Part shown: piece by piece, positions 8,345 to 56,160 of the stretch | Position numbering within the stretch: position 1 is the first letter of the stretch | How the letters are laid out: every line of letters begins with the position of its first letter | DNA from: a virus | Taxonomy: Duplodnaviria; Caudoviricetes | Length of the DNA: 64,000 nt | Virus record (IMG/VR): IMGVR_UViG_3300027374_000478 | Coordinates: 64,001 to 128,000 of that record | Direction: 5' to 3' (one strand) | The notes under the pieces: model-generated | Told to the model about the DNA's origin: nothing | The model's database searches: none | What the model saw: the letters and a program-made list of their open reading frames with translations, nothing else | Made by a program: the position numbers and the translations under genes

Positions 8345-8366
8345 AAGCTGAAGGAGGTAAAACTTT

Positions 8367-14377: not shown

Positions 14378-14736
14378 AATTCGCATTTTAAGACAACAAT
14401 ATGAGGAGGTGTTATAATTGTCAATACTTGGAGGAATAATCTTTTTAATTATTGCTTGGTTACTTGATTAAAACAAAGGTTAAATGCCACTGGAATTATC
14501 TGGTGGCTTTAATTATGGAAAAATGTTATAATATAGGAGTTTAGAATATGGATAAAGAAATTATATTAGATTTTATATGTTATGGAAAACATATGGTTGT
14601 AGTAAAATTAGAGCATGGAACACATGTTATGTATATAGATGAATGGAAACGTACATCTAAAAAACGACATTTAGAACATCGAGATAAAAAACGAAAATAT
14701 AAAACAGCTTAATTGATAATATTAGGAGGAATTAAT

Positions 14737-20249: not shown

Positions 20250-21245
20250 ATGTGTTATAAGGATGAAATTCAGAAGAAAAATGCGGAAAAATTACAAAGG
20301 AAAATGAATGAAGACAATATACCAATGTTCATACAGTTATATCTTTTAAACAGAAAAAGTAAATTAGGTGCATTAAATTATTATTCTGTTATTAAAAATT
20401 TGTTACGATGGATGATAGATAAAAGGCTGATTCAAAAGAATAGTATATCAGAAATTACACCGCCAGATATGGAATATATAGAGTCAGCTTATATAAATAT
20501 GTATTTAGAAGAAAAACAAAATGAAGGAATATCGCCGACAACATTGAACACAAGGAAAAACATTTTTAGAAGTTTTTGGAAGTCTATGGTTAATTCTCCT
20601 AGTGTACCTGTAAAATGTAACATTATTGAAGATGTAGCATATGAAGGTTTGGATTCTGGATATAATCGCTATGTTAAAATGCCATCAAAGGACGATCTGG
20701 AAGAAATGAGGAAAAATATTAATCAGAAAAAGAAGAATGACCGTTTTGTAAGGGACAGGAACCTGCTTATACTTACAATCCTGATGAATACAGGTTTGAG
20801 GGCATGTGAACTTATAGAATTAGAATTTTCTTCATTATTCTTAGATGGAAACGAAATAGAAAAAACGCCACATATCAGAGTAATGGGAAAAGGGGTATAT
20901 TATTCTGCACTAGGAAGAAATATTTTGCTTAATCTTACCGCAAAAGATGCATTTTTGAAATGGCTTGAAGTCAGAAATACAATAAATGTCATAGATGACA
21001 GAGCTATTTTCTTAAATAAGACAGGGAAAAGAATGCAAGAGTCTGACTTGAGAGCAATGTTTTTTGTATATAGTGGTAAAAAACTTACTCCACATATGAT
21101 CAGGCATTGGTATGGAACTGTAATAACAGAAAAATATGGAGTTGCATTCGCACAGCAACAGTTAGGGCATAAGAATGTGAATGTCACAGTAAATACTTAT
21201 GTAGATGGGGGATATGGTATTAGAGAAAAACTAGCACTAGAATAG
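20250..21245 (+). CDS. tyrosine recombinase (XerC/XerS-like)
   Basis: catalytic R (TGLR), K (MGKG), HxxR (PHMIRH), LGH, Y (NTY); N-terminal core-binding domain. Confidence 0.9.
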   Translation: MCYKDEIQKKNAEKLQRKMNEDNIPMFIQLYLLNRKSKLGALNYYSVIKNLLRWMIDKRLIQKNSISEITPPDMEYIESAYINMYLEEKQNEGISPTTLNTRKNIFRSFWKSMVNSPSVPVKCNIIEDVAYEGLDSGYNRYVKMPSKDDLEEMRKNINQKKKNDRFVRDRNLLILTILMNTGLRACELIELEFSSLFLDGNEIEKTPHIRVMGKGVYYSALGRNILLNLTAKDAFLKWLEVRNTINVIDDRAIFLNKTGKRMQESDLRAMFFVYSGKKLTPHMIRHWYGTVITEKYGVAFAQQQLGHKNVNVTVNTYVDGGYGIREKLALE

Positions 21246-30179: not shown

Positions 30180-30758
30180 ATGGAAGAGATATTAAATGTG
30201 TACTATGCTGACAATGCAAAAAAACTTCATAAAACAGTTGATAAAATATTATTCAAATTTGGAGGACTATCAAATAAGGATGTCGATGATTTTTATTCGC
30301 TTGCTAATGAGGTGTTTGTGGATGTAATGAGAAGATATGATGCATCTCAATCATTTGATGGATTTCTTTATTCATGTTTATCGAAGAAAATAAAAACAGA
30401 AATGACAAAACGAAATAGAGAAAAACGTAAAGCAGACAGAATGGCTGTTTCAATTGATGCACCTATTGGGGAAGATGATGGTTCTACATTGAGAGATGTT
30501 ATTGCTGGTGATTTTACTATTGAAAAAGAAGTGTTTGAAAAGAAAAAGAGGGAAGAATGGAGAAAAGAAGTAGAGGAATATCTTAATAATTTATCTCCAT
30601 TGCAAAGAAAAATAGCTTTTTTGCTATCTGATAATAGTACACCTGATGAAATATGCGAAGAATTACATATAACGGTAAAGCACTTTAAAAATTCTATGAA
30701 AAGAATTTTGGCAGATGAGAGAATAAAACCACTTAGGCCGTTGGTAGAAAGGATTTGA
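30180..30758 (+). CDS. sigma-70 family alternative sigma factor
   Basis: region 2 'DVDDFYSLANEVF....RRYD....FDGFLY', 'VSIDAPIGEDDG', region 4 HTH 'LSPLQRKIA.LL......EICEELHIT'. Confidence 0.8.
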   Translation: MEEILNVYYADNAKKLHKTVDKILFKFGGLSNKDVDDFYSLANEVFVDVMRRYDASQSFDGFLYSCLSKKIKTEMTKRNREKRKADRMAVSIDAPIGEDDGSTLRDVIAGDFTIEKEVFEKKKREEWRKEVEEYLNNLSPLQRKIAFLLSDNSTPDEICEELHITVKHFKNSMKRILADERIKPLRPLVERI

Positions 30759-30763
30759 AGATT

Positions 30764-32206
30764 ATGAAGTTATTGAGAGATAAGATCAAAAGAGACACTT
30801 ATATGGTGTCCAAACTTTGTGGGATGATTGGCAGAGGGGATTTAAAAGATAATCATCCACAACAAAGAAAATCTGGACAATGGGATAATAGTACTCGTGA
30901 TAATTTTATTGTTACTGTTATCAAAAATGAAGATTTTGATCCAATCAAAATATGTGAACAGCTCACAGAAGATGGAGTAATTCTTTGGTTGATTGACGGT
31001 CTTCAGCGTTCTACTACCATTGCAAATTTTAAAGCTGGTAAATTTGCGTTGGGGAGAAAAATTGATCCATATGTAATTGAATTTCAAGAAGCAACAAGAG
31101 ATGAAGAAGGTAAAATAACATATAAAAATATTTCTTATGATTTAAGAGGAAAGGGTTATAAAGATTTACCAGAAAAGTTAAAAGAAGATTTTGATAATTG
31201 CCCTGTTGATATAAGGAAGCATTTGGATTGTACAGATGAGGAAGTGGGCAGACATATTGTCAGGTATAATTCTGGAAGGCCAATGGTGGTAGCTCAGAAA
31301 ATATCAGCTTATATGCATAATACAGCAAAATATGTGAAGAAGTTGTCTGGACATGCTTTCTTCAATGACTGTGCTAATTATTCTGAAACTGCTGACAAGA
31401 ATGGAACAGTTGATAAAGTGGTATCTGAGACGGTTATGGGATTGAATTTTTTTGAATCTTGGAATAAACAGGCAAAAAAAATAGGTAAGCATTTGAACGA
31501 AAATGCAACAAAAGATATGTTTGATAATTTTTCGTTGTATTTAGACAGGTTATTGGAAGTGGTTACACCACAAACTGGAGTGTTATTTTCTGCGAAAAAT
31601 GCGATTATATGGTTTATGCTTTTTGATAGGTTTGATAAAAAAGGATTCGACGATAATAAATTTCAAATGTTTTTAGAGCATTATGAAGAAATAAAAAAAA
31701 TAAAAGTAAAAGTCAATCATGAGTATGAACTTGTTAAAGGAAGTGGAGAGTATACAAGCAATATTTCGTTTGCAGAACTTGATGGTTGTAAATCTACTAA
31801 AGATAAAGGGGTAATAGAAGATAAATTACATATTTTGGAAACTTTACTTAATGATTTTTTACATATAAATAAATCTGAATCGCATTTTGATTTAGAATCT
31901 TTTATATCTGAAAATTTAAATATGGATGTAGAAGAAATAAAAGATGATATCGAATTTTATAATGAATCATTAGATGATTTGGCAAAAAAAACGATTAAAA
32001 ATGGTTCTAAACTGTTGCAGATTGAAAATAGACCATCTTTATTAGCAATGGTGGTTTATTCATACAAAGAAGATATTGATTTGGATGAATGGCTGACAAA
32101 ATATGCAAAAGATAACAATACATATTTTGTGGATCAAAAAAAGAATTTCTTTTTTATGAAAAAGGATTTTGAACATTATTATAGAAAACGAAAACTGAGT
32201 GCATAA
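30764..32206 (+). CDS. DUF262-like (ParB/Srx fold) protein
   Basis: 'HPQQRKSGQW','LIDGLQR','RYNSGRPM'. Confidence 0.75.
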   Translation: MKLLRDKIKRDTYMVSKLCGMIGRGDLKDNHPQQRKSGQWDNSTRDNFIVTVIKNEDFDPIKICEQLTEDGVILWLIDGLQRSTTIANFKAGKFALGRKIDPYVIEFQEATRDEEGKITYKNISYDLRGKGYKDLPEKLKEDFDNCPVDIRKHLDCTDEEVGRHIVRYNSGRPMVVAQKISAYMHNTAKYVKKLSGHAFFNDCANYSETADKNGTVDKVVSETVMGLNFFESWNKQAKKIGKHLNENATKDMFDNFSLYLDRLLEVVTPQTGVLFSAKNAIIWFMLFDRFDKKGFDDNKFQMFLEHYEEIKKIKVKVNHEYELVKGSGEYTSNISFAELDGCKSTKDKGVIEDKLHILETLLNDFLHINKSESHFDLESFISENLNMDVEEIKDDIEFYNESLDDLAKKTIKNGSKLLQIENRPSLLAMVVYSYKEDIDLDEWLTKYAKDNNTYFVDQKKNFFFMKKDFEHYYRKRKLSA

Positions 32207-34821: not shown

Positions 34822-35865
34822 ATGATAGAAGATAAAACAGATTTTGAAAAAGTAGTAGATTTCGGTAATTTATATCAAGCATATTTAAAATCTAAATCAG
34901 GTAAAGGTTTTTCAAAAAGCAGTCAAAAATTCCAAGTATTAGCTCTTGATGGAATTCATCAAATAAAGAGAAGATTAGAAACTAAAACATATCAAGTATC
35001 AAAATACAATGAATTTATAATATATGAACCGAAAGAGAGAGTCATTAAAGCATGTTCGTTTGTAGATAAAATTGTACAGCATAGTTTGTGTGATAATGTA
35101 CTGATTCCAAGATTGAATAAAGAGTTTATTCAAACAAATTATGCTGGACAGATTGGCAAAGGTACATTGTATGGATTGGATTGCTTAAAAGCTCAGATGT
35201 ATCTTGCATATCAGAAGTATGGATATGATTGTTGGATTATAAAAGCTGATGTTAGCAAGTTCTTTTACAATATCAATCACGATATTTTGAAGGATATTTT
35301 GAAATATTTTATAGAAAATAAAGAAGTGTATTGGCTGTGTGAGAAGTTTATTGATAGTACTGAGGGAGTAGGACTTCCATTAGGTAATCAGGTTAGTCAA
35401 GTATTTGCACTTTTATATTTATCAGTGTTAGATCACTTTATCACAGGAGAACTTGGAGTTAAATATTATGGTAGATATATGGATGATTTTTATTTGATAG
35501 TACAAAATAAAGAATATGCGAAATGGTGTTTAGCAGCTATTTATGAGTTTGTGTATTCATTAGGTCTTGAATTAAACAGTAAGACTCAGGTCATTCCTTT
35601 TAAAAATGGAATCAAATTTTGTGGTTTTCATACATATGTGACTTCAGGTGGTAAAGTAATCCGAAAGCTGAAGAACGAAAATAAACGTGCCGCTAAAAAG
35701 AAATTTAAGAAAATGGTTGGATTAGTGAGGTGTGGAAAACTTAGCAAAGAGAAATTTTATGAGAGTTACAATGCTTGGAAAAATCATATATCACATGGCA
35801 ATTGTGTGAAATTTGGATATGAGATGGATAGATATATAGAAAAATTATTTATAGGAGAAAAATGA
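34822..35865 (+). CDS. DGR reverse transcriptase
   Basis: GLPLGNQVSQ (DGR-type), RYMDDF, KADVSKFF, FCG. Confidence 0.95.
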   Translation: MIEDKTDFEKVVDFGNLYQAYLKSKSGKGFSKSSQKFQVLALDGIHQIKRRLETKTYQVSKYNEFIIYEPKERVIKACSFVDKIVQHSLCDNVLIPRLNKEFIQTNYAGQIGKGTLYGLDCLKAQMYLAYQKYGYDCWIIKADVSKFFYNINHDILKDILKYFIENKEVYWLCEKFIDSTEGVGLPLGNQVSQVFALLYLSVLDHFITGELGVKYYGRYMDDFYLIVQNKEYAKWCLAAIYEFVYSLGLELNSKTQVIPFKNGIKFCGFHTYVTSGGKVIRKLKNENKRAAKKKFKKMVGLVRCGKLSKEKFYESYNAWKNHISHGNCVKFGYEMDRYIEKLFIGEK

Positions 35866-37616: not shown

Positions 37617-38120
37617 ACGATTATTAATCGAATCTGGCAAATGCCAAACAGCAAAACTTTTTCAATCAAACCGATTGAAGAACTTATACATAAATATGCG
37701 TATGGGCAGATTATAGATCTGTTTGCAAACAGTAATAAAATAGCAACAATTACAAACGATTTAGACACACAATATGATACTGATTATCATATGGATACAT
37801 TAGATTTTCTTAAAATGTTTGATGATTGTTCCGTTGATACTATATTGTATGATCCACAATACAGTGCTCGCCAAGTATCGGAATGTTATAGAAAATTGGA
37901 AAGAACTGTAAATATGCAAACAACTCAAGCTTCATATTGGTCAAAACAGAAAGAACAAATAGGAAGAATTGTAAAGAAAGATGGAATAGTTATTACTTGT
38001 AGCTGGAACAGTGGTGGCATTGGAAAGAAATATGGATTTGATATTGAAGAGATATTATTAGTGCCACATGGAGGATGGCACAATGACACGATTGTTGTTG
38101 TAGAGAGAAAAGTAAAATAA
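37617..38120 (+). CDS. small adenine-specific DNA methyltransferase-like protein (probable ACG start)
   Basis: 'IDLFAN','D.ILYDPQYS','L.V.HGG.HNDTI' pattern; SD GGTGGTGA then ACG in frame. Confidence 0.7.
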   Translation, partial: TIINRIWQMPNSKTFSIKPIEELIHKYAYGQIIDLFANSNKIATITNDLDTQYDTDYHMDTLDFLKMFDDCSVDTILYDPQYSARQVSECYRKLERTVNMQTTQASYWSKQKEQIGRIVKKDGIVITCSWNSGGIGKKYGFDIEEILLVPHGGWHNDTIVVVERKVK

Positions 38121-39081: not shown

Positions 39082-40470
39082 TTGGAAAGTAATAATAAAA
39101 GATTTAGTTTATCAAAAAATTGGAAACTGGTAAATTTCTGTGAGTTTGATAAGTATGCGACTAAAAGCTATTGTGCAATTCACAGAGTAGATGAGAATTT
39201 AAACCTTGGTGATATTACTGAGGTTGATGGAACAAAATTAGAAGATTTTAATATGATTTGTGGAGGGAGTCCTTGTCAGGATTTCAGCGTAGCTGGTAAA
39301 CAAAAGGGTTCTGTGTGGACTTGTAATGGTTGTGGACATGAATATAACCCTCTAACGGTACATTGGAGTCAGAGAGATAAATGTCCTAATTGTGGAAGTA
39401 ATAATATTGAAAAAACAAGATCGTCACTTCTTGTTGAGTATTTGAGAGTAATCCGAGGAAATAAACCTAATTTTGGAATGTATGAAAATGTTAAAAATAT
39501 TGTGGGTAAACAATTCAGAGATACTACATTCAAATTATTTGAAGATGAGTTACATGAGTATGGCTACAATACATATTGGAAAGTGCTGAACGCAAAAGAT
39601 TATGGTATTCCTCAAAACAGAGAGCGAGTATATCTGATCTTTATCAAGAAAGACTTAGACAACGGTAAGTTTGTGTTCCCTAGAGAATTTGATAATGGAA
39701 TTCGTTTGAAAGATGTTTTGGAAGATGAGGTAGATGAAAAATATTATATTTTTGATGATAAAGTGCAGAGATTTTTAACAAATCTAAATACTAATACTTC
39801 TTTACTATATGATCCGTGTCAGGTAAAAAGAGAGGGTAAATCAAGGGAATATAATGATTACTGTCCAACTCTCACTTCAAGAGACTATAAAGATCCCAGA
39901 TTGGTAAATGAAAATGTAGTAAAACAAGTCGGAAATATTTCTGATTGCAATGGGAATTGGAAGAATCCACAAGTGGGGAGAATTTATGATCCCGATGGTT
40001 GTTCACCGACATTAAATACTTGTGGCGGAGGTAGCCATGAACCTAAGATTGTTCAGGTTGGTAATGTAAATCCATCTGGTAAAGGTATGAATGGTAATGT
40101 ATTTTCAGAAGATGGACTAGCACCAACTTTAACAACAAATAAAGGTGAAGGAAATAAAATTTTAACAGGTATTAGAATCCGCAAACTAACGCCAAAAGAA
40201 ACTTTCAGGCTTATGGGATTTTCTGATTCGGCATATGACGCTGCAAGCAAAGTTGTTAGCAACAGCCAGCTTTATAAACAATCAGGGAATTCAATAGTAG
40301 TAGATGTTTTATATTACATATTAGTTGAGTTATATAAGGCAATGCCGTACCTATTTGATGATTTAAAACTGAGCAGTTTCTTCTCAGGTATTGGTGCATT
40401 TGAGGCTAGTTTGGACAGATTGTATGAAAGCATTAATACTGGAAATTTTACCAAACCACAAGCGGAGTAA
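39082..40470 (+). CDS. C5 DNA cytosine methyltransferase, circularly permuted, with zinc-ribbon insert
   Basis: GGSPCQDFS (IV), ENV (VI), PQNRER (VIII), RKLTPKE..RLMGF (IX), KQSGNS (X), then SFFSGIGAFE (I) at the C-terminus. Confidence 0.9.
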   Translation: MESNNKRFSLSKNWKLVNFCEFDKYATKSYCAIHRVDENLNLGDITEVDGTKLEDFNMICGGSPCQDFSVAGKQKGSVWTCNGCGHEYNPLTVHWSQRDKCPNCGSNNIEKTRSSLLVEYLRVIRGNKPNFGMYENVKNIVGKQFRDTTFKLFEDELHEYGYNTYWKVLNAKDYGIPQNRERVYLIFIKKDLDNGKFVFPREFDNGIRLKDVLEDEVDEKYYIFDDKVQRFLTNLNTNTSLLYDPCQVKREGKSREYNDYCPTLTSRDYKDPRLVNENVVKQVGNISDCNGNWKNPQVGRIYDPDGCSPTLNTCGGGSHEPKIVQVGNVNPSGKGMNGNVFSEDGLAPTLTTNKGEGNKILTGIRIRKLTPKETFRLMGFSDSAYDAASKVVSNSQLYKQSGNSIVVDVLYYILVELYKAMPYLFDDLKLSSFFSGIGAFEASLDRLYESINTGNFTKPQAE

Positions 40471-41062: not shown

Positions 41063-41761
41063 GTGATTAATATAAATATTGAGCATAATTGGATAGAAAC
41101 ATTTATAACAGAAAGTAAGAAAAAAGAATTAGAAATAAGAAGGAAAATTGATAAACAAAAAACAATCATGAAAACAATTACTAATGAAGAATCTAGCGTT
41201 GTGGATGATTTTTGCATGACTTTACAAAGACGTTCTTCGAGTTGGGGTGATTTTATTGTAAGTTTGGATAAAGTAAATGAAGCATTATTAGCTGGAATAC
41301 CATTAAGAGAAATAATTTATAACTATTTAGAAAATAAAAAATGTTCAAGTTATGGAGGAGAGAATATGATGGATCATTATGTCGGAGCATTTAATACAGA
41401 AATGTTACCAATTGAAAAAATTTTAACATGTAGAGAGAAAGATATTAGAATTGTAGATGTAAATCTAATTGTGCCAGACAAGGTTGTAGAAGTTACATTT
41501 GCAGATGGAACAAAAGAGAAATCTGTATGTAGAGAACCTGATACATTCAGTTTGGAATCTGCAATTTCTATCTGTATTTCCAAGAAGATTATGGGTGGAT
41601 CATCTGCTTATAATAATGCGATTAGACGTGGTATGAAGGTCTATGAGAAGAAGTTAGAGTATGCAAAGAATAACACAAATCTTCCAGATAATCCAGACTA
41701 CAAGCGGATCAATGAATTTGTAGCAAGTGTGAATGAGAGAGTTGTGAAAGGAGAAGTATGA
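41063..41761 (+). CDS. hypothetical protein, possibly chimeric
   Basis: 232 aa; internal SD GGAGG before MMDHY; C-terminal segment resembles the tail of phage nucleotidyltransferases. Confidence 0.55.
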   Translation: MININIEHNWIETFITESKKKELEIRRKIDKQKTIMKTITNEESSVVDDFCMTLQRRSSSWGDFIVSLDKVNEALLAGIPLREIIYNYLENKKCSSYGGENMMDHYVGAFNTEMLPIEKILTCREKDIRIVDVNLIVPDKVVEVTFADGTKEKSVCREPDTFSLESAISICISKKIMGGSSAYNNAIRRGMKVYEKKLEYAKNNTNLPDNPDYKRINEFVASVNERVVKGEV

Positions 41762-42471
41762 AGAGACAGATTAGAAGAAATGTTTTTGAAACAAATTCGA
41801 GTTCTATGCATAGTTTAACAGTTATGAAGAGAGATGATAAATATACTCCAGAAGAATTTTTAGACGGAATATATTTATGTAAAGACGAAGATACAGGCGA
41901 GGAATCTTGTGTTTGGGAGCCTTGGGATCACGATTTGGAATTTGGTAGGAGTCCATTTAGGGCTTTGGGAACATTTACAGATAAATGGTTGTATGCGTGT
42001 GCTTCGTTGGTTCATGACTATAATGATGATGTTTATAAAGAACTCGTTGCACTTGCATTGAAATATATACCAGGTCTTAAAAAGATCAAACTGCCAATGG
42101 ACAGTGATAGTATTGCAGATAAAAATGATGAAGAACATAAAAACGATGACTATTATCAGAAGTATGGTAAGACAGAAGATGAACTAAAAGAATATTTATC
42201 ACAGAAAGAAAAGGATTGGGGTTTTGAACTTGAGTATTGGAAATCTTCAAATGGCTGGTGGCATTATGACAAACCATGTACAGGATATGTTGATGAAGAT
42301 ATTCTAAGTGGATTTTTAGAGCATGAAGGTATTTCTCTTGAAGAATATCTTATAAATAAGAAATATGTCGTCATTCAAGACGGTGATGAATATTGCTATT
42401 GGGACAATATGAAGCAAACAGGGCTAGTAAATATGGATATGATTGATCATGAATATCCAAGAGAGGATTAA
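41758..42471 (+). CDS. acidic protein with N-terminal 'RRNVFETNSSSMHSL' motif
   Basis: motif shared with the next two genes. Confidence 0.8.
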   Translation: MKRQIRRNVFETNSSSMHSLTVMKRDDKYTPEEFLDGIYLCKDEDTGEESCVWEPWDHDLEFGRSPFRALGTFTDKWLYACASLVHDYNDDVYKELVALALKYIPGLKKIKLPMDSDSIADKNDEEHKNDDYYQKYGKTEDELKEYLSQKEKDWGFELEYWKSSNGWWHYDKPCTGYVDEDILSGFLEHEGISLEEYLINKKYVVIQDGDEYCYWDNMKQTGLVNMDMIDHEYPRED

Positions 42472-42478
42472 GGGATCA

Positions 42479-42925
42479 ATGAAAAGGAAGATTAGAAAAG
42501 GTGTATTTGAAACAAATTCGTCTTCGGTTCACAGTTTGGTTATTTCTAATGAGGGCAGGGAACCGAGTGAATTCAAACTGAATAAGGATGGAGAAATAGA
42601 AATTGATTTTGGACAGTTTGGAAAAGACAAACGTATTTATACATCACAATATGACAAACTTTCCTATCTGATTACTTGTTTATATTATCTGTCAGGATAT
42701 GATATATCTGATATTTATGACAAGTGGGAATTTAGAGAAATTCAGGATGCTATTTGTAAATATACAGGTGCGACAGGAATTAAGATTTTAGGAGAACAGG
42801 AACCAGAGATTGATCATCAGTCGCAGCCCTATGGCAATATTGAAATTGTCAATGTTTATGATGAGGATGCGGTTATCAATTTTGTATTCAATAAGTATGT
42901 GTCATTAAAAACAGATTGTGATTAA
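42479..42925 (+). CDS. protein with N-terminal 'RKGVFETNSSSVHSL' motif
   Basis: shared motif; 'IDHQS' near the C-terminus. Confidence 0.8.
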   Translation: MKRKIRKGVFETNSSSVHSLVISNEGREPSEFKLNKDGEIEIDFGQFGKDKRIYTSQYDKLSYLITCLYYLSGYDISDIYDKWEFREIQDAICKYTGATGIKILGEQEPEIDHQSQPYGNIEIVNVYDEDAVINFVFNKYVSLKTDCD

Positions 42926-42941
42926 GGAGGAAGTTTATTTT

Positions 42942-43313
42942 ATGAAGAGGGAAGTAAGACGTGGAGTATTCGAGACAAATAGTAGTTCAGTACATAGTTT
43001 AACAATGTGTTCTGGAGAAGAGTACAAAAAGTGGGAGAACGGCGAAGTATTATATTGGGAAGAGGAAAATAAATTTGGAACCAAAGAAGAAATCATTGAA
43101 GAAATGAAAAAAATGAAGTGGCATGATGGAACACCACGATATGAAAAGGTTAATTGGGAAAATGAGGATACAGTAGATGATATTTTTTCAGATGAAGGAA
43201 TCAAAACTTGTGAAAAATATTTTGAAAATGATTGGTATGAGACATATGAGAAAAAGTATACCACTCAAAACGGTGAAGAAGTTGTAGCATTTGGATATTA
43301 CGGTCACGATTAA
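42942..43313 (+). CDS. protein with N-terminal 'RRGVFETNSSSVHSL' motif
   Basis: shared motif; SD AAGGAGG. Confidence 0.8.
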   Translation: MKREVRRGVFETNSSSVHSLTMCSGEEYKKWENGEVLYWEEENKFGTKEEIIEEMKKMKWHDGTPRYEKVNWENEDTVDDIFSDEGIKTCEKYFENDWYETYEKKYTTQNGEEVVAFGYYGHD

Positions 43314-43328
43314 GAAAGGATGGTAGAA

Positions 43329-44222
43329 ATGAATCTGTTGGGAATTTATAAGAATGGGAATTTTACCACTAAGTTATTCTCAGATGGAACCAAGATTAGA
43401 GAAACAGAAGATGATGAGTTTATCCCTGATTTTGCAGAGAATATGGATATCAAGATAAGTAATTATTGTGATATGGGATGTAATTTCTGTCATGAGGGTA
43501 GCACAAAGAATGGTAAACATGGAGATATTCTGAACCAGAAGTTTATTGAAACTTTACATCCGTATCAGGAGGTTGCGCTTGGTGGTGGTGATGCAACGAG
43601 CCATCCAGATCTGATTCCATTTTTACATAAGCTGAAGGATAGGAAAGCCGTTGTAAATATGACCGTAAACCAGCGACACTTTGAACAGAAACAGGAATTG
43701 ATTAAGAAGTTGGTTGATGAAAAACTAATATATGGTCTTGGTGTATCTCTTGTAAATCCAACAGATGAATTTATATCACTAATTCAGCAATATCCAAATG
43801 CAGTTATACATGTGATTAACGGTATTCTCAAGCCTTCAGACGTAGAAATGTTATTTGATAAGAATTTGAAGATGCTTATCCTTGGATATAAGCAGTTAAG
43901 GCGTGGTGGTGAATGGTATAGTGAGGATCACGAAAATATCATTATTAAGCAAATGTGGCTGAAAGAAAATCTTGGTGGAATCATTGAGCGTTTCAAAGTA
44001 GTGAGTTTCGATAATCTGGCTATTGATCAGCTTGAAGTTAAGAGATTAATGAGCCAGGAAGAGGGGGATGAGTTTTACATGGGGGATGATGGCAGCATGA
44101 CATATTATATTGATATGGTTGAACAGAAATTTGCAAGAAGTTCTACTGCCGATTTTGATAAGAGATATGATTTATTGGACTCTGTAGATGAAATGTTCAA
44201 AAAGATAGTATCTGAACAATAA
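43329..44222 (+). CDS. radical SAM enzyme
   Basis: CDMGCNFC (CxxxCxxC), 'ALGGG...HPD', 'NMTVN'. Confidence 0.9.
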   Translation: MNLLGIYKNGNFTTKLFSDGTKIRETEDDEFIPDFAENMDIKISNYCDMGCNFCHEGSTKNGKHGDILNQKFIETLHPYQEVALGGGDATSHPDLIPFLHKLKDRKAVVNMTVNQRHFEQKQELIKKLVDEKLIYGLGVSLVNPTDEFISLIQQYPNAVIHVINGILKPSDVEMLFDKNLKMLILGYKQLRRGGEWYSEDHENIIIKQMWLKENLGGIIERFKVVSFDNLAIDQLEVKRLMSQEEGDEFYMGDDGSMTYYIDMVEQKFARSSTADFDKRYDLLDSVDEMFKKIVSEQ

Positions 44223-44319: not shown

Positions 44320-45438
44320 ACGAGAGTTTACAAAGAGAAACAGTTCTTAATATTTGATTTTGAAGATGGAAGGACTGTCAAATATGATTTTGCCACAAAA
44401 ACTTGTATAGGGATCAAAGGTAAACCAGTAAAAGGATTGCAGAGCCAATTATCAGGCATAACAATGAATCAGATAATTGAGTATTGTGCTGATGAAAAAT
44501 ATGCTAAATTTCTCAAATTTGTACAGAATAGATACCCAAATTACATATCAAATATAGGTACAATTCTTTCAAAAGTTCCACAGTATTCAAAATTTGAACA
44601 GATATTTTCAGCAGGATTCGATAGTATTGTAGATAGAAATTTTACAAAAACAATCAATGATATTCCAAAATCTTTAATCAAAATAGCGAGAGATAGACAA
44701 ATAAAAATATCAGATAGATTTTGTGATTATTGGAAAAGAAATCCTGATGCTCATTTTCTGGCGTATCAGCTTGATTATATATCTTTAACAGATGAAGACA
44801 TCAATAAAATTTTAATGAGAGAAAGTTATGATTATGTTGATGGGATTAGTAATTACTTTTCCTATTTTAATAAGTTGATTGAAGAATATGGATATAATCC
44901 GAAAGCATTGTTGCTGTATCTTGACACTCTAAAAACTTTTGAAGCAATAGAAGATATGCGTCATTTACTTGGTGAATTGGTAGATTATGCAAGAATGATG
45001 AATACGATCAGTCCAAAATTTGATAAATATCCACGGAATTTTCTTACTACACATAAGATTGCATGTAGAAATTATAATAGATTAAAGAAAGAATTTTCTG
45101 AGGAGATATTTAAGACAAGAATAAATAAGAATTTGGAATGTATATTTGGGGATTATCAGTTTATTTATCCTGATAGCACACAAGAAATTAAAGATGAGGC
45201 AGTAGCACAAAATAACTGTGTGGCTTCTTACATAGATAAAGTTATTGATGGAGAATGTCATATTATGTTCTTGCGTAAGAAATCTAATCCTAAAGAGAGT
45301 CTTGTCACTATTGAGATACGAAACAATCATATTGTACAAGCCAGAAGAAGATTTAACGATCCTGTAACATCAGAAGACCAAGAAGCAATTGATAAATGGA
45401 ATAAAAAATTTGCAGATAAAGAAAGGAAAACAGCATGA
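44320..45438 (+). CDS. PcfJ-like domain protein (probable ACG/ATA start)
   Basis: C-terminal 'EIKDEAVAQNNCVASY....IMFLRK.....SLVTIEI....IVQAR'; frame open from 44317 after SD GAGGTGA. Confidence 0.75.
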   Translation, partial: TRVYKEKQFLIFDFEDGRTVKYDFATKTCIGIKGKPVKGLQSQLSGITMNQIIEYCADEKYAKFLKFVQNRYPNYISNIGTILSKVPQYSKFEQIFSAGFDSIVDRNFTKTINDIPKSLIKIARDRQIKISDRFCDYWKRNPDAHFLAYQLDYISLTDEDINKILMRESYDYVDGISNYFSYFNKLIEEYGYNPKALLLYLDTLKTFEAIEDMRHLLGELVDYARMMNTISPKFDKYPRNFLTTHKIACRNYNRLKKEFSEEIFKTRINKNLECIFGDYQFIYPDSTQEIKDEAVAQNNCVASYIDKVIDGECHIMFLRKKSNPKESLVTIEIRNNHIVQARRRFNDPVTSEDQEAIDKWNKKFADKERKTA

Positions 45439-45869
45439 TTACAAAAGGAAATGAGATTAGGCTGATTAAGCCGATGGGAGTATTTGATAATATCGGAGAA
45501 GTTTGCGAAGTGACAGATGTATCAGAAGATGGCGTTATCAGTTTTAAATTTGGTGGCTGTCATCTTGGGTGTATGTCTTATAACGAATTTGAAAAGTATT
45601 TTGAATTAGTAGAGAAGGAAGTATCAGAAGAAGAAAGTGATGAAGATGCTGATTCTATGGCAGAAAATAAAGAAGTGTATGACTTAATTGAGTGGTGTAA
45701 AGAGAATGATAAACCATTTTATCTAAAGCTATATTTAAATGTACTGGAAAAGAGAAATGGTATTACACAGTCAATTCTTGGAATGTATAAAAATAGGTTA
45801 TGTTTGGTGCAGTTTAAGAATAAAACTTTCAAGGATTCAGATTTTAGTGGATTAAAAATTATGCTTTAA
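45435..45869 (+). CDS. hypothetical protein (3' end overlaps the retron RT stop)
   Basis: 144 aa ORF, SD AAAGGA. Confidence 0.6.
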   Translation: MITKGNEIRLIKPMGVFDNIGEVCEVTDVSEDGVISFKFGGCHLGCMSYNEFEKYFELVEKEVSEEESDEDADSMAENKEVYDLIEWCKENDKPFYLKLYLNVLEKRNGITQSILGMYKNRLCLVQFKNKTFKDSDFSGLKIML

Positions 45870-46842
45870 TAGTAGCATTGCGAACATGATTATAAATATT
45901 ACTGAATTTTGTTGGTTCAGTTTGTTGTGCGGCCACTATTAAACCCTGAAGTCTCTTTTGAGAGTGTTCGTCATTTGGATTATTCTTATAATTACGCAAT
46001 TCATTCATTACTTTATGGCTTAATGAGTTAGGAATATTGAGGTTCCCATTAGGAGAAATGATAGTTCCAGTAACAGATTTTGGATAAGTATTTGTATAGT
46101 ATTTTACTTTTGATCTTGAAAGCCTATATAAATATTTAGAAATAATATTATAAATTATTTCTTTGTGCTTGTGTGAAATTTCGTGTTGTGAAGAAAAGGT
46201 AATATCATCTACATATATAGACATAATTATCTCATTTTTATCACAAAAATTTTGTAGTTCATCAAACATATTATGATTCGCTAAATAAGATAGAATTTGA
46301 CTTGCAGGAGAACCGGAAATTAAATGATTTGTAGTTTTTATTCCCTTAGATAAAAGGAATTGCTCAATAGGTTCTGATTCCTGAATATCACATAAAGTTA
46401 AGTCAATAGTAACAAAATTAGTGAGAATATTGGCTATATCAGAAGGTGTTTTTAAATCAACTTTAAAAAAATTATACACTGTTTCACGAGTTATACATGG
46501 GAAAAATGCTGTTAAATCTATTTTAAAAAGAAAATTGCAGTTTTGGTGTATAGCAGCATTATCAACATAAGATTTTCCTTTTATACCAGAGAATGCATTT
46601 GAAGGAACTTCTATTTTATTTAATTCGCATTTTATGTTTTTCTGAATTTTTTTAAGAGAATCCGAAGGAGCTTCAATTAAACGAGGTTTTGGATTTGCTT
46701 GTATATATGGATTAATCTGCTTTGCAACAAAATTTTGATTTAGATATTCTTTTGTAGGAACTTTTAAAAGTATCATTAAATATTTTTTGGTGGATAATTT
46801 ATACAAATTTGATTTTGTTGGATCTATCATAAATAACCTCAA
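45859..46842 (-). CDS. retron-type reverse transcriptase
   Basis: NAAIH (retron region X, NAxxH), KIDLTAFF, SGSPASQ, YVDD, VTG (region Y). Confidence 0.9.
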   Translation of the reverse strand: MRLFMIDPTKSNLYKLSTKKYLMILLKVPTKEYLNQNFVAKQINPYIQANPKPRLIEAPSDSLKKIQKNIKCELNKIEVPSNAFSGIKGKSYVDNAAIHQNCNFLFKIDLTAFFPCITRETVYNFFKVDLKTPSDIANILTNFVTIDLTLCDIQESEPIEQFLLSKGIKTTNHLISGSPASQILSYLANHNMFDELQNFCDKNEIIMSIYVDDITFSSQHEISHKHKEIIYNIISKYLYRLSRSKVKYYTNTYPKSVTGTIISPNGNLNIPNSLSHKVMNELRNYKNNPNDEHSQKRLQGLIVAAQQTEPTKFSNIYNHVRNATIKA

Positions 46843-49680: not shown

Positions 49681-50724
49681 TTGCAAGGAAAAGATAAAAA
49701 TATAAATTCAAAATCTGCTGATCTGATGGAGTTAATCAGTAATGCTCCACAAAATCAAACAATAGGAGATAATTTAGTAAGAGCGTGGTCAAAGATAAAC
49801 AACGATAAATACAAGAAAATTGTATGTGCTTTATCTGGCGGATCAGACAGTGATGTAATGGCAGATATTATTTGGCAATGTGATAAAGATGGTAAGGTAG
49901 AATATGTTTGGTTTGATACTGGTTTAGAATATCAGGCTACAAAAAACCATCTGAACTTGTTAAGAGAGAAGTATAATATAGAAATTAAACCATATAAAGC
50001 AATCGTTCCTATCCCTACAAGTTGTAAAAAATATGGACAACCATTTGTTTCAAAAAATGCTTCTGAAATGATTGATAGATTACAATGTCATGGATTCCAA
50101 TGGGAAGATGAACCATTAGACATATTATTGCAAAGATATTGTGAATGGAATACAAAGAAACAAGATTGGGTTGGATGTAAAGGTGCGTTAATGTGGTGGT
50201 GTAATGCAAATGAATCAGTCCAATTTAATATTGCATATAACAAATATCTAAAGGAGTTCATGATTCAAAATCCTCCAAAGTTCAAAATTTCTTCAAAGTG
50301 TTGTAAATATGCAAAGAAAGATGTATTACATAAGCTTGTTGCAAATGAAGGATATGATTTAAATGTATTTGGGGTTAGAAGGGCTGAAGGAGGTATTAGG
50401 CAAACAGCATATAAATCCTGTTTTGATGAAAATGGAGAAGGCTATGATAATTACAGACCTTTGTTTTGGTACACAAATTCAGACAAAGAAGATTATGAAA
50501 ACCATTATGGAATTGTACATAGTAAGTGTTATACGGAATATGGGTTAGAGAGAACGGGTTGTGCTGGTTGCCCATTTGGAAGAGATTTTGAGCAGGAGTT
50601 GGAAGTTATAGAGAAGTATGAACCAAAGCTATTTGTTGCTGTGAATAATATTTTTGGTGACAGTTATGAGTACACAAGAAAGTATAGAGAATTCTGTAAG
50701 GAGATGGACGAGAAGAAAAAATAA
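49681..50724 (+). CDS. PAPS reductase family (PP-loop) protein with Fe-S cysteines
   Basis: SGGSDS, FDTGLEY, KCC, GVRRAEG, RTGCAGCPF. Confidence 0.85.
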   Translation: MQGKDKNINSKSADLMELISNAPQNQTIGDNLVRAWSKINNDKYKKIVCALSGGSDSDVMADIIWQCDKDGKVEYVWFDTGLEYQATKNHLNLLREKYNIEIKPYKAIVPIPTSCKKYGQPFVSKNASEMIDRLQCHGFQWEDEPLDILLQRYCEWNTKKQDWVGCKGALMWWCNANESVQFNIAYNKYLKEFMIQNPPKFKISSKCCKYAKKDVLHKLVANEGYDLNVFGVRRAEGGIRQTAYKSCFDENGEGYDNYRPLFWYTNSDKEDYENHYGIVHSKCYTEYGLERTGCAGCPFGRDFEQELEVIEKYEPKLFVAVNNIFGDSYEYTRKYREFCKEMDEKKK

Positions 50725-50872: not shown

Positions 50873-51754
50873 ATGGAATATCAAAAGAAAATCAAATGTG
50901 AATTATATAGGGACTCTATGCAGAATTATAAGAAGTATGCAATTCCACCTGCTCAGTTAATTATTGCAGATGTTCCATATAATGTAGGAAATAATTTTTA
51001 CGGTTCAAATCCGATGTGGTACAACGGAGGAGACAACAAAAAAGGTGAAAGTAAATTAGCTGGTAAAGCAGCTTTCAATTCTGATTTTAATTTTAATCTA
51101 TATGAATATTTTCATTTTTGTTCCAAGATGCTTAAAAAAGATGATACTAGACCTGTTCCGAGAGGACGCAGTAGTGACTCACCTTGTATGATTGTATTCT
51201 GTTCTTTTGAACAGATTCAGACACTTATTAAGGCGGCAGAAAGGCATGGGTTCATTCATTACATACCACTAATCTTTTGCAAGAATTATAGTCCACAGGT
51301 ACTCAAAGCTAACATGAGGGTTGTGGGAGCTGCTGAATACGCACTCCTATTATATAGAGATAAATTGCCAAAATTCAGAAATGGTCTTCAAGTTGATGAA
51401 AATGGTAAGAACATTCCAGGAACAGGACATATGATCTTTAACTGGTTTGATGGTGGAGATGAGGATGAGTGGGGAAGAACTTATCATAGCAACAGTACAT
51501 ATATGATGTGGGAAAAAGATAAGTCTAAGGAAGTTCCCAAAATCCATCCGGCTCAGAAGCCAGTAGCAGTTCTGAAACGTTTGATTGAGATATTTACTGA
51601 TCCTGGTGATGTGGTTATTGATCCATGTGCAGGTTCTGGTACAACACTAAGAGCAGCTTATGAACTTGGCAGAAGTGCTTTCGGTTTTGAAATTGACCGT
51701 AATTTCTACCAGAGAGCAAAAGATGAAATGTTGAATTTTGCAAAAGAAGAGTAG
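50873..51754 (+). CDS. N4/N6 DNA methyltransferase (beta class)
   Basis: ADVPY, HPAQKP, DPCAGSGTT, GFEID. Confidence 0.9.
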   Translation: MEYQKKIKCELYRDSMQNYKKYAIPPAQLIIADVPYNVGNNFYGSNPMWYNGGDNKKGESKLAGKAAFNSDFNFNLYEYFHFCSKMLKKDDTRPVPRGRSSDSPCMIVFCSFEQIQTLIKAAERHGFIHYIPLIFCKNYSPQVLKANMRVVGAAEYALLLYRDKLPKFRNGLQVDENGKNIPGTGHMIFNWFDGGDEDEWGRTYHSNSTYMMWEKDKSKEVPKIHPAQKPVAVLKRLIEIFTDPGDVVIDPCAGSGTTLRAAYELGRSAFGFEIDRNFYQRAKDEMLNFAKEE

Positions 51755-52494: not shown

Positions 52495-53595
52495 ATGATT
52501 AAGAAAATTGATAAGAAGAACAAATTTATATCTATGTTTAATCCCAATACAGGATTTTACATGAGAAGTGGAGTTATTGAAGATGGCAAAGACACAAGCA
52601 AAGATCCTTTTATGACTTCATTTCCAGAATTATTAGACATAGGAGTAATGGGACATTGTGTTCATGGAGACAGTGGTCTATGTATTAAATCTGGCGTTCA
52701 GTGTTATCAGAATGGTTTAAAGACAAAATATCCAAATATGTCTTTTGAAAATTTCAAGAGAATTGTGGACGAGTGTAAGGGTAAAACTTTTCAGTTTGCT
52801 TTAGGTGGTAGAGGTGATGTGGATCAGCATGAAGATTTTGAAAAGATTCTAAGATATAGTAGAGAAAATGGTATCGTGCCAAACTTTACATCATCTGGTC
52901 TTGGATTTACTGTAGAGATTGTTTCACTTTGTAAAGAGCTTTGTGGAGCTGTTGCAATCAGTTGGTATCGTCAGGAACATACATATAAAGCAATTCAGAT
53001 GTTGTTAGACGCAGGAATTAAAACTAATATTCATTATGTGTTAGGTAATAATTCTATTGATGAAGCAATTAAGAGATTAAAAAGCAATGATTTCCCTAAA
53101 GGCATCAATGCGATAATTTTTTTGTTGCATAAGCCGGTAGGATTAGGGCAGGAAAATAATGTGTTAGATATAGAAGATAAAAGAGTAAGAGAATTCTTTC
53201 ATATTATTGATACTCAGCAGTTCGATTTCAAAATTGGTTTTGACTCTTGTACAGTTCCAGCACTTATCAATATGACTTCAAATATAAATGAGGATAGTTT
53301 TGATACTTGTGAAGGTGGTAGATGGTCTGCTTATATTACATCAGATATGAAAATGCTACCTTGTAGCTTTGATAATCAAGATATGAGATGGGCATATGAT
53401 ATTTCAAATGATACAGTACAGAACGCCTGGAACAGTAAACAGTTTGAGGATTTTAGAGATCATTTTAGAAATTCATGTAGTGGTTGTAGTAGGCAGTGTG
53501 AATGTAGGGGAGGTTGTCCTATTAGAAGACAGATAGTTTTATGTGACAGGAAGGAGAAAGATTTATATGAAAGTACGCAGCGATTTTGTGACTAA
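52495..53595 (+). CDS. radical SAM/SPASM domain enzyme with an atypical cluster motif
   Basis: C-x7-C-x6-CY, ALGGRGD, NFTSSG; SPASM 'CEGG...LPC...C..C...C.C.GGCP'. Confidence 0.85.
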   Translation: MIKKIDKKNKFISMFNPNTGFYMRSGVIEDGKDTSKDPFMTSFPELLDIGVMGHCVHGDSGLCIKSGVQCYQNGLKTKYPNMSFENFKRIVDECKGKTFQFALGGRGDVDQHEDFEKILRYSRENGIVPNFTSSGLGFTVEIVSLCKELCGAVAISWYRQEHTYKAIQMLLDAGIKTNIHYVLGNNSIDEAIKRLKSNDFPKGINAIIFLLHKPVGLGQENNVLDIEDKRVREFFHIIDTQQFDFKIGFDSCTVPALINMTSNINEDSFDTCEGGRWSAYITSDMKMLPCSFDNQDMRWAYDISNDTVQNAWNSKQFEDFRDHFRNSCSGCSRQCECRGGCPIRRQIVLCDRKEKDLYESTQRFCD

Positions 53596-53905
53596 TTCAT
53601 CAAGTAGCAGTTTTATAATTGCAAAAAGAGAAAATTGCACTATTGATGAAATAAGAAATAATTTAAATGAGAATAAAGAAAATATTAAATACATATTGGA
53701 AATGTTTGATATGGATACTGATGGTAAATCAGTTGAAAAATTCATAAATGATTTATCCAATCAGTTATTTAGAGAACCATCAGACTTGCATCTTGGAGAT
53801 TGGATTGCATCAGCAGTTGAATATTGCAATGAAGATGATGAGTTTGGAGCGTTTATGTATGATTATGGATATAAACTTGGCACAGAAAACTTTAAGGTGG
53901 GATAA
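53567..53905 (+). CDS. protein with N-terminal 'KVRSDFVTNSSSSSF' motif
   Basis: motif shared with the next gene. Confidence 0.8.
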   Translation: MKVRSDFVTNSSSSSFIIAKRENCTIDEIRNNLNENKENIKYILEMFDMDTDGKSVEKFINDLSNQLFREPSDLHLGDWIASAVEYCNEDDEFGAFMYDYGYKLGTENFKVG

Positions 53906-53910
53906 AAAAT

Positions 53911-54507
53911 ATGAAGATAAGAACTGATTTTGTTACAAATAGCAGTAGTTCTAGTTTCGTTTGCGAAATATGTGGTCGTACTGAAAGTGGGTGGGATATG
54001 TGTTTGTCAGATACAGAAATGATGGAATGTGTTAATGGTCATACATTTTGTTGTGATGAATCTCTTCCAAAACCTACAAAAGAAGAAATGGTTAAAATGA
54101 TTATAGAGAACGAGTGGAACAAAGACGCTTGGAGTTCTGATTTAAAAGACTACAAAGATTATTCGGAAGATGAATTACTTGTAATGGAAGAAGATGAGTT
54201 ATGGGGATTTTGCTGTGAAGATAGTGGATGCTATGAAGTTCCTGAGTGTGTATGCCCTATTTGCCAATTTATTGAATACTCAGAATATGATCTTAGTGCT
54301 TACTTATTAAAGCAATATGGTGTACCCAGAGAGGATGTATTTGCAGAGGTTAAGAAACTGAATAAAAGAAGAAAGAAATTATATGAAAATGAATATATTA
54401 CACATGTTTGTAAGCAGTTCAATTTGAATCCAACAGAAATCGTTGCAGGGTGGAAAGAAAAATTTGGTACTTATGAGAAATTTAAAGTGTGGTTAAATGA
54501 AAAATAG
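53911..54507 (+). CDS. Cys-rich protein with N-terminal 'KIRTDFVTNSSSSSF' motif
   Basis: shared motif; CEIC, C..GH..C, CPIC. Confidence 0.8.
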   Translation: MKIRTDFVTNSSSSSFVCEICGRTESGWDMCLSDTEMMECVNGHTFCCDESLPKPTKEEMVKMIIENEWNKDAWSSDLKDYKDYSEDELLVMEEDELWGFCCEDSGCYEVPECVCPICQFIEYSEYDLSAYLLKQYGVPREDVFAEVKKLNKRRKKLYENEYITHVCKQFNLNPTEIVAGWKEKFGTYEKFKVWLNEK

Positions 54508-54548
54508 TCTTGAAATTTTGCTTTTATTGGATGAGGAAGGAGGAAATA

Positions 54549-54908
54549 TTGGATAGAGAAAAATTTATTTCTCAGCTACCTATAACTGAGAAAAATATAG
54601 ACAAGCAATGGATTATGAGTGTAATGAAACAGTCTGTAGATTCCAATTTACATGATGGTAATCCAAGAGGGCATAGAAACTTAATTATTGTCATGGAAGA
54701 ACTCGCTGAGTTAAGTAAAGAAATTTCAAAAGAACTTAGAGGGAAAGGCGATCAATATAATATTCTTGAAGAATTGGCTGATGTGCAGCTTAGTATTTAT
54801 TATGTTCAAGAAGTTTGTGGTGTCAACAATGACGACTTACATAAAGCAATGAATATTAAAATGAGAAGACTTGAGGAAGTTTTGAATAAAAAAGGGAAGT
54901 ATCAATAA
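54549..54908 (+). CDS. MazG-like nucleotide pyrophosphohydrolase
   Basis: EELAEL...EELADV. Confidence 0.75.
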   Translation: MDREKFISQLPITEKNIDKQWIMSVMKQSVDSNLHDGNPRGHRNLIIVMEELAELSKEISKELRGKGDQYNILEELADVQLSIYYVQEVCGVNNDDLHKAMNIKMRRLEEVLNKKGKYQ

Positions 54909-54984: not shown

Positions 54985-56160
54985 TTGAAAATAGCAATTA
55001 TAGATGCGGATCTGATAGGTAGGGACAAGCACAGGTTTCCTAATCTAGTTTGTATGAAACTATCAGGTTATTATAAAGAACTTGGTGCTGAAGTTGAATT
55101 GAAAATGGATTATGAAGAATTAGCAGCATGTGATAAAGTATTCATTTCCAAAGTGTTTACTGACACACCAATAGATGAAGAGATTTTGAAACTTTCAAAT
55201 GTAGAATATGGCGATACAGGATTCTTTTATGACAAAGCTCCGAAACTTCCTAATGAAGTAGAACATCATATGCCGGATTATAATTTGTATGATGAGTGGG
55301 TGAATGACAGATTAAACGAAGGTGGTAAGAGAAAGGATTTTACATATTATCTTGATTATTCAATTGGCTTTATGAGTCGTGGATGCATCAGACAATGTAG
55401 TTTCTGTGTGAATAAGAATTATAAATCATGTGAAGTTCACAGTCATTTATCTGAGTTTCTGGATGAGAGCAGACCATATATCTGTTTGTTGGATGACAAT
55501 GTACTGGCTTGCAAGGACTGGAGAAATATATTTGAAGAACTTATTGCGACAGGTAAGAAATTTCAGTTCAAACAAGGTTGTGACGAGAGACTTCTTACAG
55601 ATGAAAAATGTGAGGTTCTGTTTGAGAGATCAAAGTGGATAGGGGACAGGATATTTGCATTTGACAATATTAAAGATAGAGAAGTAATAGAAAGAAAGTT
55701 ACAGATGATAAGGAGACACACTAATGATCAGATTAAATTCTATACATTTTGTGCGTACAATCATGATAACATAGGTGTTTATGATGAGGAGTTTTGGGTT
55801 AAGGATATAGAAGATCTGTTTGAGCGAATCAAAATTCTAATGACTTATGGGTGCTTGCCTTATGTAATGAGATTCAAAGATTATGTTCTGAGTCCATATA
55901 AAGGGATTTATATCAATGTTGCGAGTTGGTGTAATCAGCCAAGTCTATTTCGTAAGATGAGTTTTGCTGAGTACAGTATGGCGAGAGGTATGAGTAATGA
56001 AAACTACAAAAAATATAAAATGGATTTTGATTTATACTTAGCAGATGGCAATAAGAAAGGTTCGTCATGGAGATATTACGAAGAATTCACACGCAAATAT
56101 CCAGAGATTGCAGAGAAGTATTTTCATATGAAGTGGAATTATTCAAATAGGAACAGTTAA
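54985..56160 (+). CDS. radical SAM enzyme (phage-type)
   Basis: SRGCIRQCSFC, LLDDN, N-terminal 'FPNL..MKLS.YYK'. Confidence 0.85.
   Translation: MKIAIIDADLIGRDKHRFPNLVCMKLSGYYKELGAEVELKMDYEELAACDKVFISKVFTDTPIDEEILKLSNVEYGDTGFFYDKAPKLPNEVEHHMPDYNLYDEWVNDRLNEGGKRKDFTYYLDYSIGFMSRGCIRQCSFCVNKNYKSCEVHSHLSEFLDESRPYICLLDDNVLACKDWRNIFEELIATGKKFQFKQGCDERLLTDEKCEVLFERSKWIGDRIFAFDNIKDREVIERKLQMIRRHTNDQIKFYTFCAYNHDNIGVYDEEFWVKDIEDLFERIKILMTYGCLPYVMRFKDYVLSPYKGIYINVASWCNQPSLFRKMSFAEYSMARGMSNENYKKYKMDFDLYLADGNKKGSSWRYYEEFTRKYPEIAEKYFHMKWNYSNRNS

Follow-up and report, generated by a model that had tools for sequence, protein, structure and literature searches.

We report here on a gene module in the genome of a large tailed phage of gut bacteria (Duplodnaviria; Caudoviricetes), in which small acidic proteins that share a conserved N-terminal segment, hereafter the tag, are encoded directly next to a radical S-adenosylmethionine (SAM) enzyme. 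The stretch of DNA analyzed, referred to as the window, comprises 64,000 nucleotides (bases 64001-128000) of IMG/VR record IMGVR_UViG_3300027374_000478, a 159-kb record that is classed as proviral, with a completeness of about 92%, and the module lies at positions 41758-44222 of that window. Tag and enzyme were found to be linked well beyond this genome, and a second, related enzyme located nearby has its own variant of the tag, so that functional coupling of tag and enzyme appears very likely. The explanation we favor, with a probability of roughly 0.45 and judged from sequence and gene arrangement, is that the radical SAM enzyme recognizes and modifies the tag. Close homologues of the module genes are present in Lachnospiraceae assemblies, and the contigs related to the source record are phage contigs of 100-200 kb. 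The four genes of this first locus are the following:

41758-42471, + strand: tagged protein 1, 237 residues, long subtype of body family A, with the type-1 tag MKRQIRRNVFETNSSSMHSL ahead of an acidic body
42479-42925, + strand: tagged protein 2, 148 residues, short subtype of body family A, starting MKRKIRKGVFETNSSSVHSL and carrying a conserved IDHQS.P motif
42942-43313, + strand: tagged protein 3, 123 residues, body family B, carrying the type-1 tag MKREVRRGVFETNSSSVHSL and ending in a conserved FGYYGHD
43329-44222, + strand: rSAM1, a radical SAM enzyme of 297 residues, with the motif CDMGCNFC and a match to phrog_16999

The first-pass annotation of this DNA, made from the sequence alone, had described three consecutive acidic proteins with a common N-terminal motif followed by a CxxxCxxC enzyme, and the open reading frames (ORFs), N-termini and isoelectric points (pI 4.6-4.8) of the proteins bear this out. 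The four genes are tightly packed and co-oriented, with no terminator-like sites between them on the + strand. An alternative start of rSAM1 at 43320 would give 300 residues, and its homologues have 297; for protein 2, the tag phenylalanine becomes residue 10 if the start at 42479 is taken, which is its position in 264 of 281 tags. The N-termini of proteins 1-3 follow the pattern MKR-x-[IV]-R-[RK]-x-V-F-E-T-N-S-S-S-x-H-S-L, and charge is distributed unevenly along these proteins, with a basic stretch over the first 22 residues (pI about 11) and acidic bodies with a pI of about 4.4. A degenerate DNA pattern for FETNSSS has four matches against 0.25 expected, a number reached in none of 100 shuffles. 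Moreover, the paralogues use different serine codons in the tag, including changes of family between TCN and AGY, indicating selection at the peptide level and no recent DNA repeat. Given the pattern counts, shuffles and codon switches, an origin of the shared N-termini by chance or by gene conversion was rejected.

The second locus lies approximately 10 kb downstream of the first, with the enzyme gene preceding two tagged genes that come in addition to the three originally noticed:

52495-53595, + strand: rSAM2, a radical SAM/SPASM enzyme of 366 residues, with the SPASM motif Cx2Cx5Cx3C
53567-53905, + strand: type-2 tagged protein of 112 residues, MKVRSDFVTNSSSSSF, its start overlapping the end of rSAM2
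53911-54507, + strand: type-2 tagged protein of 198 residues, MKIRTDFVTNSSSSSF, with a cysteine-rich body

Both proteins begin with what we call the type-2 tag, MK[VI]R-x-D-F-V-T-N-S-S-S-S-S-F, in which a valine occupies the site of the type-1 glutamate. Within the 159-kb genome, five proteins have an N-terminal [TS]N[ST]S[ST] and fit either tag, and each of them directly adjoins rSAM1 or rSAM2; the sole other match to [TS]N[ST]S[ST] is a 53-residue ORF on the minus strand, which does not bear the tag. The type-2 tagged genes are followed by a MazG-like gene (54510-54908) and, just downstream, by the gene for a third radical SAM protein (54985-56160, + strand, 391 residues, CIRQCSFC, phrog_9298, no Pfam match).

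The linkage between tag and enzyme was then evaluated from both sides. When IMG/VR loci were collected through the enzyme, all of the 68 related loci that include upstream sequence hold one to three tags. When they were collected through the tag, an rSAM1 homologue was found within 8 kb at 74 of 79 loci; two of the five exceptions have rSAM1 on the same contig, at 8.5 and 32 kb, and the remaining three are incomplete records. In bacterial and archaeal assemblies, scanned with one genome per species, rSAM1 lies within 10 kb of the tag at 34 of 40 loci, with five of the six misses falling on short or truncated contigs. The concern raised in the first-pass annotation, namely that such tagged proteins might commonly occur without a radical SAM enzyme, is thus not borne out. 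The assembly contigs carry the labels Lachnospiraceae, Erysipelotrichaceae, Prevotella, Fibrobacter, spirochaetes, Planctomycetaceae and Methanomassiliicoccaceae; probably, many of them stem from phages and were binned together with the host, and the module is almost exclusively phage-borne. On the Breznakiella homolactica chromosome (locus L184, 10276-11297), a tag-adjacent rSAM1 homologue is split in two ORFs, possibly as a decaying prophage copy.

The linked rSAM1 enzymes are diverse, forming 16 clusters below 65% identity and reaching down to 31% identity with the window enzyme, and the arrangement recurs in complete phage genomes. The Prevotella megaphage Lak-A1 carries the enzyme followed by five tagged genes, and a single tag is present in each of Microcystis phage Ma-LMM01 (the pair being gp130 and gp128), Rhodothermus phage RM378 (p108 and p106) and Salmonella phage Arash (OQ632216.1), in which the tag is fused to the enzyme. 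No orphan tags away from the enzyme were detected in these four genomes. Gene order depends on the lineage: the phages of Lachnospiraceae have tags upstream of the enzyme, and Lak, among others, has them downstream. No third conserved gene was found over the 16 diverged loci, and no other family is common to more than three of them; one gene cluster present at four loci consists of antisense ORFs overlapping the radical SAM gene. RNA ligase or nucleotidyltransferase genes near the module in Arash and RM378 had suggested a recurring RNA-repair neighbor, which was discarded in view of these 16 loci. Regarding the second system, loci collected through the type-2 tag have an rSAM2 homologue in 60 of 73 cases and a type-1 tag in none of the 73, and may hold up to seven tagged genes. 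The shared F-x-T-N-S-S-S core, together with the association of each tag variant with its own enzyme, indicates that enzyme and tag have diversified together, as would be expected if they interact.

We then turned our attention to the anatomy of the tag and of the proteins that bear it, which we refer to as clients. Across 184 distinct tagged proteins (281 tag instances, on which the count for position 10 given above is based), residues R6, F10, E11, N13, S14, S15, S16 and H18 are 98-100% conserved and position 12 is either threonine or serine, and the only glycine of the type-1 tag is conserved at 70%. A profile search with the 36-residue N-terminus retrieved 7,292 clusters (at 50% identity) with E<=1e-3, and the match starts at residue 1 in nearly all of the 150 best matches listed. 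BLAST sorts the bodies without the tag into 19 clusters, some of the bodies being only about 80 residues long, and the tag is the only part common to all clients. The bodies of the three window proteins had been taken as dissimilar, which holds for protein 3, a separate short family (B), and not for proteins 1 and 2, which are remote homologues (hhalign 99% over 94 columns) and form a single BLAST cluster without the tag. Family A is characterized by the motifs FG, a DK.SY helix and GY[IV]D[HE], and the single tagged partners of Arash, RM378 and Ma-LMM01 all show the family-A motifs FG, DH and GNDN.

An AlphaFold2 model of protein 2 has a predicted local distance difference test (pLDDT) score above 90 for the body and below 50 for residues 1-14, and the tag is accordingly predicted to be a flexible arm. 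Its second half (xHSLxI) is hydrophobic and continues into the first strand of the body. No match to the protein 2 body fold was found in the PDB (best Foldseek E 0.77; best Z 2.4 in the wide VIA-align search), and BFVD returned uncharacterized viral relatives and one weak match, to a 461-residue radical SAM protein, with no known function among them. Two look-ups in the ESM Atlas gave only viral hypothetical or radical SAM clusters. At the family level, protein 2 matches phrog_28997 (E 6e-8); none of the Pfam, NCBIfam and PADLOC models covers any of the tagged proteins examined, and no known domains were detected by Pfam in 10 longer tag-bearing representatives.

The enzymes themselves could be placed with more precision. 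rSAM1 belongs to the radical SAM superfamily, with a marginal pass of PF04055 (30.2 bits against a gathering score of 29.5), and its family, which like that of the tag has no description in Pfam, NCBIfam, PADLOC or the literature searched, exceeds 7,400 proteins (E<=1e-5); the match to phrog_16999 has an E of 4e-44. Its cysteines C47, C51 and C54 are invariant among 27 homologues, and it has no other cysteine. In some homologues the loop carries an insertion of 10-13 residues, giving C-x(14-16)-C-x2-C (locus L121, 8494-9387; locus L147, 9241-10239). The best solved folds for rSAM1 (Foldseek, probability 1.0, partial TIM barrel) include the peptide maturases CteB, SkfB and SuiB, together with the sugar-modifying DesII at ranks 2-4. 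rSAM2, in turn, falls in the SPASM subfamily (PF13186, 27.9 bits against a gathering score of 21.5), with invariant cysteines C272, C290, C328, C331, C337, C341 and C350. The core loop of the window copy reads C55-x7-C63-x6-C70; some homologues have C-x3-C-x3-C and many others Cx3Cx2C. The two enzymes are homologous (hhalign 97% probability, E 3e-11, 251 columns), the alignment extending over the initial portion of the SPASM domain, and a PDB sequence search with both of them gave nothing below E 0.01. Membership of rSAM1 itself in the SPASM/twitch group was considered and rejected, as it has only three cysteines and the region aligned to the start of the SPASM domain of rSAM2 has lost the cysteines found there.

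Fusions between client and enzyme provide a further line of evidence. A 453-residue protein with the order rSAM1, tag and family-A body was recovered from independent assemblies (P0242 and P0243), with a relative that is 85% identical across the tag-body region. Arash gp146 (7491-8921), deposited as a 'methyltransferase', is a protein of 476 residues with the reverse order, tag, family-A body and radical SAM enzyme, in which MYLTQIRYGFATNSSSSHS is followed by CDLACKFC. Tandem tag-body-tag-body proteins were also found. The tag is unbroken in every fusion, with FETNSSSIHS and FATNSSSSHS being kept. In the alignment of P0242, MAFFT misplaced the tag once about six or more rows with only the radical SAM enzyme were included.

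From this arrangement we propose that the enzyme would physically bind the tag and modify it, in line with the earlier suggestion of one radical SAM enzyme serving several proteins with a serine-rich tag. That one enzyme serves several tagged proteins is strongly supported by co-occurrence, covariation of tag and enzyme, fusions and the predicted flexibility of the tag. Modification is favored because the tag is the sole common feature of otherwise unrelated clients, because three consecutive small polar residues are near-invariant, and because a covalent link between client and enzyme does not release the tag from constraint. It is further favored because the sister enzyme rSAM2 is a SPASM protein, a class whose substrates are peptides or proteins, and because the folds nearest to rSAM1 include CteB, SkfB and SuiB, even if DesII is found among them. 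In the proposed scheme, a 20-residue arm, M-K-R-Q-I-R-R-G-V-F-E-T-N-S-S-S-x-H-S-L, with its phenylalanine fixed at position 10, would label small acidic proteins as clients. The minimal system consists of the enzyme and one family-A client, and larger phages have added as many as nine clients that are paralogous or unrelated. The enzyme would bind the basic, extended arm, setting F-x-T-N-S-S-S over the [4Fe-4S]/SAM site, and would abstract a hydrogen atom from an invariant small residue of the tag, resulting in a post-translational modification or a protein-derived cofactor required for client activity. Candidate chemistries may include the oxidation of serine to an aldehyde (serine to formylglycine, as in the anaerobic sulfatase-maturating enzyme, anSME) or a cross-link from the aromatic ring of F10 to the beta carbon of T12 or a serine, as in three-residue cyclophane products of the class of peptides that are made by ribosomes and modified after translation (RiPPs). 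The sister system would be run by the SPASM-bearing relative with its own tag, MKIRxDFVTNSSSSSF. In its most extended form, the proposal would be that of a protein-maturation system shared by phages of very different hosts, in which the portable tag would become a protein-derived cofactor or cross-link of a new kind, arming an exchangeable set of small acidic effectors, possibly for host takeover or anti-defence; we regard this extended version as less likely than not.

Several observations weigh against modification of the tag. rSAM1 lacks auxiliary-cluster cysteines, which most protein- or peptide-modifying radical SAM enzymes carry, and the loci surveyed are phylogenetically non-independent, coming mostly from gut and rumen phages. 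Moreover, the AlphaFold2 model of P0242 folds enzyme and body well and leaves tag residues 301-311 with a pLDDT below 50, with no confident placement in the enzyme. An obligate subunit would explain the client-enzyme fusions, and the minimal systems with their single family-A partner, as well as a substrate would or better, and the further conserved polar motifs of family A (FG, GY[IV]DH and GNDN) could combine with the tag into an active site. These points lead to the strongest competing explanation, which fits the data nearly as well and to which we give about one chance in three: the tag may be a docking peptide, similar to an F-box, that joins variable subunits to the catalytic radical SAM protein, perhaps completing its active site, and the true substrate would lie elsewhere, e.g., a nucleic acid, a nucleotide or a host protein held by the bodies. 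Co-occurrence of tag and enzyme and their type specificity are equally expected under such a docking role, as are family-A bodies fused to the enzyme at either end, the weak BFVD match to a radical SAM protein, minimal systems that always pair the enzyme with one family-A protein, and bodies that are folded domains whose fold has no PDB match. Nevertheless, a pure tether should relax once both partners are fused, yet FETNSSSIHS and FATNSSSSHS are intact; near-invariance of three small polar residues in a row is seen more typically in segments that reach into an active site than at binding surfaces, and the SPASM domain of the sister enzyme is typical of peptide and protein modifiers.

It is also conceivable, albeit unlikely, that the clients are enzymes in their own right, acting in the same pathway with no contact to the radical SAM enzyme, in which case the DH and GNDN motifs and the N-terminal E/T/N/S/S/S/H residues would jointly build a metal site or a catalytic one; in a variant of this idea, self-cleavage at the serine run would leave an N-terminal serine or a pyruvoyl group. 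The extra conserved polar motifs of family A, and the continuation of xHSLxI into the first strand of the body, are in agreement with such a site. However, the same tag is found on at least 19 unrelated bodies, some of which have only about 80 residues, AlphaFold2 leaves residues 1-14 unpacked on the body, no Pfam or NCBIfam enzyme family matches, and the pairing of tag type with enzyme type would be left unexplained in the absence of an interaction. Far less probable still is a role of the tag as a signal for virion or capsid targeting, localization or degradation, with the radical SAM gene as a mere neighbor. The targeting sequence of T4 internal proteins is cleaved after (L/I)-x-E, and the fixed distance of the tag from the N-terminus, its basic start and its V-F-E, ahead of consecutive small acidic proteins with variable bodies, are reminiscent of that pattern. 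Still, this leaves unexplained the near-obligate and order-independent linkage to the enzyme, the second tag-enzyme pair and the fusions; in addition, valine replaces the glutamate in the type-2 tag, so that V-F-E is absent there, and the most conserved residues come after the putative cleavage site.

Recognition and modification of the tag by the enzyme, if confirmed, would define a new class of radical SAM substrates and possibly a new protein-derived cofactor, and a short, portable tag of this kind could serve protein engineering. The hosts of module-bearing phages span Lachnospiraceae, Prevotella, Microcystis, Salmonella and Rhodothermus, and tags were also found on contigs binned with methanogenic archaea. 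Literature searches on the motif strings, on phage radical SAM systems and on Ma-LMM01 gp128/gp130 returned no description of the tag or of the pairing, and in the Ma-LMM01 transcriptome paper gp128-130 go unmentioned (PMC5780444). It is plausible, from what gene content and sequence suggest, that the pairing represents a widespread, unannotated form of radical SAM protein maturation. It is among the more sharply defined unknown modules of large phages, offering a handle on many phage proteins annotated as 'hypothetical', and direct testing is possible since the cultured phages Arash, Ma-LMM01 and RM378 hold minimal versions of it.

Concerning the surroundings of the module in the window, a PcfJ-like protein (44437-45438, + strand; PF14284, E 2e-20; phrog_9653) is encoded directly after rSAM1. 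Two reverse transcriptases are present: one at 45859-46842 on the opposite (-) strand, in an accessory region, matching the PADLOC model for retron type VI reverse transcriptases (E 5e-68), and another at 34822-35865 on the + strand, matching phrog_1423 (E 6e-108) as well as PADLOC generic reverse transcriptase and DRT-like models, possibly of a diversity-generating or defence type. DNA-modification genes are unusually dense (6041-7690, 37641-38120, 39082-40470, 49681-50724 and 50873-51754), including several C5 and N6/N4 methyltransferases and a protein similar to phosphoadenosine phosphosulfate (PAPS) reductases, which suggests an anti-restriction or accessory region. Three phrog_2598 paralogues of unknown function are spread over 17 kb (14713-15786, 17813-18856 and 30755-32206), and an integrase-like gene is located at 20250-21245.

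Finally, the module was compared with known systems. In PHROGs, phrog_16999 is annotated as 'Fe-S oxidoreductase' and phrog_28997 as being of unknown function, with Ma-LMM01 gp128 and gp130 belonging to this pair; the two families are unlinked there, and neither the tag nor the SPASM-type second system is recorded. Viperins were discarded, since the pVip model reaches 19 bits (E 2e-4), covering the generic core only, and viperin_w_prok scores 14 bits against a threshold of 180; the tagged proteins have no match among the PADLOC defence models. Glycyl-radical activases (PflA, NrdG) are likewise small radical SAM enzymes with a single cluster, their target being a conserved loop in a folded protein, and rSAM1 is weakly similar to NrdG. 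Membership in that group was nevertheless rejected, as rSAM1 scores 22.2 bits against 131 with TIGR02495 and the clients lack the RVxG[FWY] glycine loop. A separate NrdG-like small activase, FFSGCDHFCRGC, is encoded in the same genome outside the window (C1:156757-157254).

Closer parallels are found in the maturation of peptides and of sulfatases. RiPP maturases (CteB, SkfB, SuiB and PqqE/PqqD) likewise rely on enzyme-specific recognition of a conserved N-terminal segment, with several precursors per enzyme and a recognition partner that is occasionally fused to the enzyme. In contrast to the short peptides that are RiPP precursors, the clients described here are folded proteins of 100-260 residues, and the conserved segment would be both 'leader' and likely target. 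A classical RiPP cluster does not fit either, as protease, transporter and a PqqD-like RiPP recognition element are not conserved nearby, there is no PqqD match, and the 16 diverged loci share no third gene. As for anSME, which the first-pass annotation had put forward as an analogy, the comparison does not extend to membership: TIGR03942 scores 13.3 bits against 349 for rSAM2 and has no match to rSAM1, which has only three cysteines and no SPASM clusters, and the tags do not contain C/S-x-P/A-x-R. The two systems also differ in that rSAM1 lacks the auxiliary-cluster cysteines, and in that the client bodies are not sulfatase-like, the one modelled (protein 2) having no match in the PDB. The likeness lies in the architecture: anSME/AtsB is a single radical SAM enzyme whose target is a short serine/cysteine motif near the N-terminus of several folded clients, where it generates a catalytic residue, and rSAM2 has the full SPASM cysteine pattern. 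Should a shared viral maturation system indeed operate through these tags, by a chemistry not yet described, it would constitute a viral, multi-client analogue of sulfatase maturation.

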